From a virus (taxonomy: Duplodnaviria > Heunggongvirae > Uroviricota > Caudoviricetes): a stretch of DNA of 21,846 nt. The notes below the pieces were generated by a model, which saw only the letters and a list, made by a program, of their open reading frames with translations, was not told where the DNA came from and made no database searches. Below are positions 1-1,204 of this stretch, in pieces. The position numbers and the translations under genes are program-made. The stretch lies in the IMG/VR virus record IMGVR_UViG_2711768075_000012, positions 1 to 21,846 of that record, one strand, 5' to 3'. Positions within the stretch are counted from its first letter, which is position 1; each line of letters starts with the position of its first letter.

Positions 1-834
1 TTATAGATAAATATCCCCTCCCAAAGGAGGACCATCAAGAGTTACTCCGCTGATATTATCTGTTTGTTCAAAAATATCTCCCCCGAATATCATTTCAAAT
101 TCTGATTTAATATCTGCTAAGTATTTTAAAATCGTATTCAACAGTTCACGGAATGTGTCGCAATGCCATTGGATATGAGGAGTTATTTGAGAGAGCACTA
201 TAGCTTTAAAGTCATCTAGGCTTTTTGGAACGTTTAAAAATGTTCCTGTTTTTAGTCCTCTCGATATCGACATGTAGTTGAACATCGATAAAATCATTAT
301 TGAGCCACCTTCCTGTCTCCTTAAATCATCAAACATCTTTTTATTATGTGGAGTAAGCTTCCTATAAGCTCGGTCTCGCTGATGGTTGAATTCTTCAGTG
401 TATAAAAGAACCTTGTCAGCAGCATCACCTATAAGTGGGCAAAAATATCTTTTCCACCAAGCCTCAAAATATCTCTTTTGAAATTCTAGATATGTCATAC
501 CAGTGATATTTGTGTTTTGTGTATACTGCTTTGCTCCTTGCTGAAGCCCATGTTTTGAAATAATAAAACCAATGTTAGCCCCAGTTTCATGCATCACCGT
601 AGTGAACGAATGGACTACGCTCTGAGGCACAGAGTTACTCCAGTTTTTACATTCTACTATGTATCTGATTTTATCTACGCTCTTGGGATCTATTGCGAGA
701 ACATCCACATTCACCGAACCACGTGGAGTCTCTACATTGGCTTCGACTTCTGCATATAAGCCAACATTGCGGAAGATGCGTTGGACTCCGTTCTGGAGAT
801 CTTTCCAATTCGTTGGTAACGGGTCATCGATCAC
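1..834 (-). CDS. PD-(D/E)xK (Mrr-cat-like) restriction-endonuclease-fold protein, 277 aa; putative nuclease moron
   Basis: Complete ORF with stop at 1-3. N-terminal region has a D...E-x-K-like motif (VDVLAID ... YIVECKNW) typical of Mrr/restriction-endonuclease catalytic folds. C-terminal ~150 aa not recognised. Start appears to be GTG at 832-834 (no in-frame ATG nearby), which lowers confidence. Confidence 0.45.
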   Translation of the reverse strand: MIDDPLPTNWKDLQNGVQRIFRNVGLYAEVEANVETPRGSVNVDVLAIDPKSVDKIRYIVECKNWSNSVPQSVVHSFTTVMHETGANIGFIISKHGLQQGAKQYTQNTNITGMTYLEFQKRYFEAWWKRYFCPLIGDAADKVLLYTEEFNHQRDRAYRKLTPHNKKMFDDLRRQEGGSIMILSMFNYMSISRGLKTGTFLNVPKSLDDFKAIVLSQITPHIQWHCDTFRELLNTILKYLADIKSEFEMIFGGDIFEQTDNISGVTLDGPPLGGDIYL

Positions 835-1009
835 TTCTGTTTTTCCTATACACTGTCACATGACCCATAGATGCTACTGTATATTACAAAAATCGTCACT
901 CCGGACGGTGCATATTTTAAACTTTGATCTGTTTCTGGCGTAGGGCGTGCAGTCAGATTAGGTTTGCTTTGTGTTATAGAAGCGTCAGTTAACATCTGTG
1001 CTACCTACC

Positions 1010-1204
1010 TTACTCAATAACACCCGCAAACCTATAAATCTTGTGTGATGCCCATTTATTTGGGCAGGATTTTATATCAGGATCTGGAAAATCTGGTCTG
1101 TATTTCTGGCCAGTCCTCCTGTTTACGCTGTTCCAACGAAGTACTGTTGATACTGAAACGCCACAGAAGTCGGCGACCTGTTTAGTTGTCATTAAGTTGT
1201 TCAT
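1010..1204 (-). CDS. AlpA-family HTH regulator / excisionase-like protein, 64 aa
   Basis: Internal ATG (plus-strand cat at 1202-1204) gives MNNLMTTKQVADFCGVSVSTVLRW..., matching the AlpA/Xis-type HTH pattern. The longer listed ORF (to 1426) overlaps the upstream gene and has an implausible N-terminus. Confidence 0.55.
   Translation of the reverse strand: MNNLMTTKQVADFCGVSVSTVLRWNSVNRRTGQKYRPDFPDPDIKSCPNKWASHKIYRFAGVIE

Follow-up and report, generated by a model that had tools for sequence, protein, structure and literature searches.

The type IV restriction endonuclease EcoKMrr consists of an N-terminal winged-helix DNA-binding domain followed by a C-terminal catalytic domain. Several of its features recur in a protein of 277 amino acids (aa) encoded at one end of a virus sequence of the Caudoviricetes (IMG/VR record IMGVR_UViG_2711768075_000012, positions 1 to 21,846), the whole 21,846 nucleotides (nt) of which were analysed and are called the window here. 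The gene lies on the minus strand at 1..834, with its stop codon at 1-3 and a GTG start codon at 832-834, as read from the list of open reading frames (ORFs) and the sequence. Its product, a predicted DNA nuclease and hereafter called the nuclease, shares with EcoKMrr and the Mrr-family type IV enzymes the Mrr_cat catalytic family, a D...ExK motif and a single polypeptide without a methyltransferase partner. However, the domain order is reversed relative to EcoKMrr, no winged helix is present, and an acidic bundle of helices without known relative makes up the C-terminal domain. With an N-terminal catalytic domain and an all-helical C-terminal part, the nuclease does not have the EcoKMrr-type architecture.

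The archaeal Mrr-like protein AF1548 (PDB 1y88), which is itself uncharacterised, is 14% identical to the nuclease with no match at the sequence level, and its 184 aa include no counterpart of the nuclease's tail at residues 161-277. Compared with Shedu (SduA), Can2/Card1, NucC, Cap4, Hna and Upx, the nuclease has no DUF4263, CARF, SAVED or helicase domain, and it differs from Shedu-type single-protein immune nucleases in domain order and sensor fold. Single-protein immune nucleases such as Shedu appear to be its closest functional analogies, a likeness in logic and not in family. The sole PADLOC match was to PDC-S02, in which 66 residues (43-108) aligned with positions 236-302 of 346 (E=1.7e-5). 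This match covers the common nuclease core only, and the nuclease is not a PDC-S02 member. Candidate nuclease defence genes of this type are common, and the present one is compact, widespread and cleanly delimited. We consider it a plausible candidate for a new family of defence nucleases that act as single genes.

The nuclease gene and its catalytic domain

The ORF is uninterrupted over 277 codons and is preceded by an AGGA 9 nt before the GTG start. In collinear Escherichia coli chromosomes, the identical ORF carries the RefSeq label 'restriction endonuclease'. Among 5.8 billion proteins searched, 371 relatives were found at E<=0.001; of the matches listed, most are full-length (~270-280 aa) and 60-99% identical to the nuclease. 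The pairwise ratio of nonsynonymous to synonymous substitution rates (dN/dS) is 0.09 in the nuclease domain, 0.10 at residues 113-160 and 0.19 at residues 161-270. Because there are more than 370 homologues and dN/dS values of 0.09-0.19, the gene is not a chance ORF; it is real, probably expressed as protein and under purifying selection. A first-pass annotation, made from the window's letters alone, had called a 277-aa protein here, past an AlpA/Xis-like gene, and the ORF is confirmed by RefSeq, the homologues and dN/dS. PHROGs gave only weak matches of the core to families of unknown function, and NCBIfam no meaningful match. Across 31 distinct family contexts, the start codon is GTG in 15, TTG in three and ATG in 13. 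Weak starts in 18 of these 31 suggest that the dose of a dangerous protein may be kept deliberately low.

The PD-(D/E)xK nuclease domain occupies residues 1-114 (493..834, minus strand), with a helix at 10-23, strands at 27-36, 39-48 and 57-63, a helix at 71-84 and a strand at 88-93. Pfam Mrr_cat (PF04471) matches residues 9-112 with 48.1 bits (gathering cutoff 21, E=1.5e-12). The catalytic motif (646..705, minus strand), identified from conservation in alignments, comprises D44 (703-705), E61 (652-654) and K63 (646-648). D44 and E61-C62-K63 are invariant among 31 homologues of 59-86% identity, and D44, E61 and K63 keep a conservation of at least 90% across 39 sequences whose identity falls to ~21-30%. 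An AlphaFold2 model built from the family alignment, with a predicted local distance difference test score (pLDDT) of 88 and a predicted template-modelling score (pTM) of 0.86, has the canonical alpha-beta-beta-beta-alpha-beta core at residues 1-114, followed by five helices. Score, motif and fold all place the protein in the Mrr_cat/PD-(D/E)xK superfamily. The Mrr-type D...ExK domain that the first-pass annotation had seen at the N-terminus is thus borne out, and of the two profiles it had named, Mrr_cat is the one that applies; NERD (PF08378) scores 15.6 bits, under its cutoff of 22.1. The structural neighbours include NucS, Hjc and further repair/resolvase nucleases. Among the viral structures of BFVD, the match is limited to the nuclease core (query-normalised TM-score <=0.35), and a sequence search of the PDB with the family profile found nothing at E<=1.

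The C-terminal extension and tail

Conservation of the protein runs past the Pfam Mrr_cat boundary into residues 115-160 (355..492, minus strand), which identity, dN/dS and the model define as a highly conserved helical extension of the core. This segment carries the motifs YLEFQxRYFxxWWxRYFCP and Y-T/V-E-P-x-N-x-x-R, and residues 115-146 form one long helix in the AlphaFold2 model. Its mean pairwise identity is 76%, compared with 79% in the nuclease domain and 52% in residues 161-277. The latter (4..354, minus strand) form a variable acidic helical tail of unassigned fold family. Across the family, the tail has a median isoelectric point of 4.7 and a median net charge of -7, an acidity that disfavours binding to DNA. 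Although under purifying selection, it changes at two to three times the rate of the catalytic core, which would match the pattern expected of a surface that tracks phage partners.

Comparison of the C-terminal domain with Pfam families and solved structures gave no match beyond generic helical bundles, and in structure comparison no reader fold was detected, whether winged-helix, SRA, EVE/PUA or another. The domain had been described as unrecognised at first reading, and it remains so against both resources. The two-domain layout is nearly constant across 93 clusters at 50% identity, nearly all of one architecture, which rules out the C-terminal domain as a promiscuous module on other effectors. 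A group of plasmid proteins from Bradyrhizobium and Bacillus (H49-H57), labelled 'restriction endonuclease', align with the nuclease over residues 1-149 only (35-37% identity). The extended core, that is, the nuclease domain with the first conserved helix, may exist with different C-terminal tails.

A mobile unit and its HEPN neighbour

A second gene accompanies the nuclease in this prophage. It encodes a 313-aa HEPN-type protein, lies on the minus strand just outside the window to the left of position 1 (10969-11910 of locus L001) and is 90 base pairs (bp) downstream of the nuclease. The protein scores 27.1 bits on HEPN_RES_NTD1 (PF18870; cutoff 27.4), and its homologues carry PF18870 and/or PF18735 (RiboL-PSP type HEPN). 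It contains the sequence RNHLIH, in which R257 and H262 (the Rx4H motif) do not vary among 16 homologues with identities as low as 29%. The profile score, the domains of the homologues and the invariant motif together point to an intact candidate effector of the HEPN RNase type. The likeness to HEPN_RES_NTD1 and RiboL-PSP proteins belongs to this neighbour outside the window and not to the nuclease.

The same ordered pair is found in Morganella morganii prophages, with amino-acid identities of 82-83% for the nuclease and 74% for the HEPN protein. These prophages have a different integrase and are inserted beside icd, and the pair is placed after int. DNA homology between E. coli and Morganella (L038) is continuous over 1993 bp at 79.5% identity, intergenic region included; its ends lie 69 bp before the nuclease start codon and 28 bp beyond the HEPN stop codon. 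This block defines the Mrr-HEPN pair as a portable 2-kb cassette of low guanine-plus-cytosine (GC) content in E. coli and Morganella.

Outside this lineage, the nuclease moves by itself. Nine other nuclease loci were compared at the DNA level, among them loci of Phytobacter, Cronobacter, Enterobacteriaceae, Pantoea, Proteus, Morganella psychrotolerans and Pseudomonas. Their homology sets in 0-84 nt (mostly 14-23) ahead of the start codon and is lost 3-7 nt after the stop codon. By tblastn, the HEPN gene was found at none of ~50 other nuclease loci, 17 IMG/VR viral contigs among them, and it is missing even at those where nuclease identity is 81-87%. Because homology ends at the gene borders and the HEPN gene is absent elsewhere, the nuclease is an autonomous single-gene mobile unit, linked here to a second autonomous unit by a lineage-specific pairing. 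Conversely, an E. coli integrative element carries a member of the HEPN family and no nuclease. The first-pass annotation had called the nuclease solitary, which does not hold in this prophage, where it shares a cassette with its neighbour, and does hold at the level of the family. All-against-all clustering of flanking ORFs at 37 loci found no neighbour common beyond close relatives, and thus no partner conserved across the family as would be expected of a toxin-antitoxin or other two-gene system.

A leader also travels with the gene (835..903, minus strand). It contains the ribosome-binding site AGGA at 844-847 and ~70 bp conserved with the Morganella cassette, and a leader of the form 'ATAGGAAA...GAA-GTG' is conserved at many nuclease loci. 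The junction between cassette and prophage backbone lies at 904..926 (no strand assigned), and homology to cassette-free sister prophages picks up again at 927-928. In strain LR-64-1 (L056), an IS2 element occupies the position that corresponds to window 921-926, exactly at this junction and ~100 bp upstream of the nuclease. A 1-nt frameshift affects the HEPN gene of this strain, but its nuclease, with one residue changed, is intact. At the other end of the gene, a GC-rich hairpin, TCCTCCTTTGGGAGGG, with a weak T-run overlaps the last nuclease codons in E. coli (13-32, minus strand). This terminator-like structure could provide partial insulation between the nuclease and the HEPN gene.

The int-xis slot of the prophage

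The prophage of the window is lambdoid, belongs to the yfdP/Q/R (CPS-53-like) type and encodes RusA, KilA-N, Q and lysis functions in addition to a cI/cro/cII region. Matches span the nuclease gene in seven of 5426 complete E. coli genomes, whereas the adjacent yfdPQR is present in about 3000, which indicates that the nuclease is dispensable for the phage. In the seven genomes, which are collinear, the prophage is integrated beside yjjG and the gene order is int (+), the 313-aa hypothetical (-), the nuclease (-), a 64-aa helix-turn-helix (HTH) gene (-) and yfdR. The 64-aa Xis/AlpA-like gene (1010..1204, minus strand) lies upstream of the nuclease in the same orientation and was assigned from its translation, weak Pfam scores and homologues: HTH_17, HTH_23 and MerR each reach ~22 bits, under their cutoffs, and sister prophages contain homologues with DNA-binding or HTH annotations. 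In the first reading, int had been expected next to the Xis-like gene. It is indeed nearby in the seven genomes, but the HEPN-type gene intervenes.

The nuclease gene has a GC content of 39% against ~47% for the locus, and the cassette as a whole ranges from 26 to 38% between flanks of ~45-50%. Its presence or absence between conserved phage genes, together with atypical GC, marks the nuclease as a moron or hot-spot cargo, the status that it had been given from the letters alone and that the genome counts and discrete DNA boundaries now support. Sister prophages at the yjjG site carry other genes in the same slot, namely a dGTPase, a 342-aa hypothetical, a 413-aa hypothetical and a hypothetical pair, which brings the different cargos to five in total. 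The dGTPase-family gene (locus L053, 2171-3397) reaches 350 bits with the PADLOC defence model for dGTPase, and unrelated hypotheticals occupy the slot in L002, L054 and L055. The int-xis slot at yjjG thus behaves as a defence/cargo hot spot; such hot spots have already been described in P2 and P4 (PMC9122126). A tRNA scan of the window found none.

Family neighbourhoods and distribution

The hosts of the nuclease family include Enterobacterales, Pseudomonas, Vibrio, Psychrobacter and Betaproteobacteria. The majority of its members are found not in prophages but on chromosomal islands, beside Gabija-like genes or on plasmids, the latter including a 3.6-kb Pantoea plasmid and a Buttiauxella plasmid. 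Eighteen IMG/VR viral contigs carry the family, flanked by terminase, portal, tail-sheath, Mor or O/P genes, and this variety implies that the nuclease is cargo at different positions in different temperate phages. Immediate neighbours elsewhere include Abi_2; an OLD-type TOPRIM protein, FRG and DUF2971; SRA-HNH, DUF5677 and DUF3800; a Gabija-like pair of OLD-ATPase and UvrD; and type I HsdM and HNH_2. Among the 114 proteins within two genes of the nuclease at 30 loci, PADLOC models matched included GajB, LmuB, AriA, AbiLi, mad3/mad8, capH, RmrA, PDC-S31 and PDC-S06. No cognate DNA methyltransferase was found within two genes in ~30 neighbourhoods; the one methyltransferase encountered was a generic class-I S-adenosylmethionine enzyme in Kangiella. 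The prophage of the window does encode two orphan methyltransferases, one Dam-like (8212-8898) and one of the N6_N4_Mtase family (13146-14198).

Proposed function and alternative explanations

We see an even chance that the nuclease is an autonomous, mobile, single-protein Mrr-type DNase, sensor-gated or autoinhibited, that serves as prophage-borne defence cargo. A lone nuclease without a methyltransferase, an antitoxin-like partner or an NTPase would need either an intrinsic specificity for non-self DNA or a means of being held inactive. In the proposed mechanism, the extension at residues 115-160 would pack onto the N-terminal catalytic domain, and the acidic tail would inhibit or gate the enzyme until a cue from the phage appears. 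A modified base is a less likely cue than a protein or DNA structure. The activated enzyme would then cut incoming DNA, or all DNA in the cell, and the outcome would be either direct immunity or abortive infection. Gating is favoured over a modification reader because of the fixed architecture, the lack of a reader fold, the acidity and fast evolution of the tail, and the weak start codons. In a functional selection in E. coli, direct immunity was obtained from seven of 11 methylase-less PD-(D/E)xK-like systems (PMC9519451). For the present protein, we infer the nuclease activity, the defence role and the gating role of the tail from sequence and context.

Several observations weigh against this proposal. 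By tblastn, the nuclease has no match in 50,697 sequenced phage isolate genomes. PADLOC-DB v2.0.0 (2023) holds no model for the family, which leaves it without a validated relative there, and no paper naming or describing it was found in the literature searched. The association with defence neighbours is qualitative, a listing without a background control. The gene is oriented like the early-left operon, and the promoter scan, at its threshold, gave no sigma-70 consensus upstream on the coding strand. Further, the tail could be a mere dimerisation module.

A more ambitious version of the proposal, which we regard as possible but tentative, is that the protein represents an undescribed immune family in which an Mrr DNase with an acidic helical sensor is teamed with the HEPN RNase in one cassette, for layered or synergistic protection. 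The helical sensor would here recognise a phage protein or a replication intermediate.

It is unlikely, in our view, that the nuclease is a type IV (modification-dependent) endonuclease that cuts modified phage DNA, such as DNA with hydroxymethylcytosine (hmC), glucosyl-hmC, or N6-methyladenine or 5-methylcytosine in a foreign context. Such an activity would account for the lacking partner methyltransferase. However, the architecture is the reverse of that of EcoKMrr, the C-terminal domain has only generic helical-bundle matches, and the acidic, variable tail is unfavourable for binding DNA. In addition, the Dam-like enzyme and the N6_N4_Mtase of the same prophage imply that any modification-dependent nuclease here would have to tolerate their marks. 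The first-pass annotation had proposed a type IV-like or abortive-infection effector. The first of these is disfavoured by the reversed order, the missing reader fold and the tail's charge, and an abortive-infection or otherwise regulated effector appears to fit better by context.

The pair with the HEPN gene could also be read as a single system of two components, a DNase and an RNase, that cooperate or of which one regulates the other, and we rate this as distinctly unlikely. The two genes are on one strand only 90 bp apart, the pair is conserved as the 1993-bp block in Morganella prophages with another integrase and attachment site, and in many E. coli and Shigella assemblies the accession numbers of the two run consecutively, a sign that the genes are neighbours there as well; the Rx4H motif of the HEPN protein is also invariant. 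On the other hand, each family mostly occurs alone, the HEPN gene being missing at all other nuclease loci and its family occurring without the nuclease in the integrative element. The intact nuclease beside a frameshifted HEPN gene in LR-64-1 speaks against an antitoxin role, although this is one case and has IS2 upstream. The absence at other loci and this strain together rule out the HEPN protein as an obligatory partner.

There is a small chance that the nuclease is a housekeeping or selfish enzyme of the phage or mobile element, engaged in recombination or replication processing, in lytic degradation of host DNA or in competition between elements. The orientation shared with early-left recombination and excision genes, the lack of a promoter at the scan threshold and the resemblance of the fold to NucS, Hjc and further repair/resolvase nucleases are in keeping with such a role. 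They stand against the location of most family members outside prophages, some beside Gabija-like genes or on a 3.6-kb plasmid, and against a gene that sits at many different phage positions and is dispensable, as its presence in seven genomes versus about 3000 with the backbone indicates. Very improbable, finally, is a type II restriction-modification endonuclease paired with the prophage's own methylase: the window does encode the Dam-like methyltransferase and the N6_N4_Mtase, but these are 7-13 kb from the nuclease, their homologues are present in L001 and L002, the backbone is common without the nuclease, and family members elsewhere have no DNA methyltransferase inside two genes. Distance, nuclease-free sister prophages and methyltransferase-free family neighbourhoods rule out a cognate methyltransferase.

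If the defence role is true, the anti-phage repertoire of the host groups named above would gain a compact single-gene nuclease system of 277 aa that is widely transferred and has a new regulatory domain, and the int-xis junction of yjjG-integrated lambdoid prophages would join the known defence hot spots. The natural Mrr-HEPN cassette would be a simple model for cooperation between adjacent single-gene effectors. If the nuclease has no phenotype, it would be one more of the many genes generically annotated as 'restriction endonuclease'.

Other regions of the window

Just downstream of the Q antiterminator gene, a 214-aa ORF (11871-12515) has no Pfam match, and at its position the collinear strain A1_181 carries a nucleoid-associated NA37-like protein and a hypothetical instead. 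This suggests that the region downstream of Q is a second variable cargo site. Further along (16855-20106), the ORF of the terminase large subunit ends after the ATPase domain (331 aa) and is followed by a P4-type integrase (18012-19250) and then a Bro-N protein. From the shortened terminase and the P4-type integrase, a second integrase-bearing element appears to lie in or next to the terminase gene. The 5.5-kb terminase/integrase stretch is at least 80% covered by matches in nine E. coli genomes.
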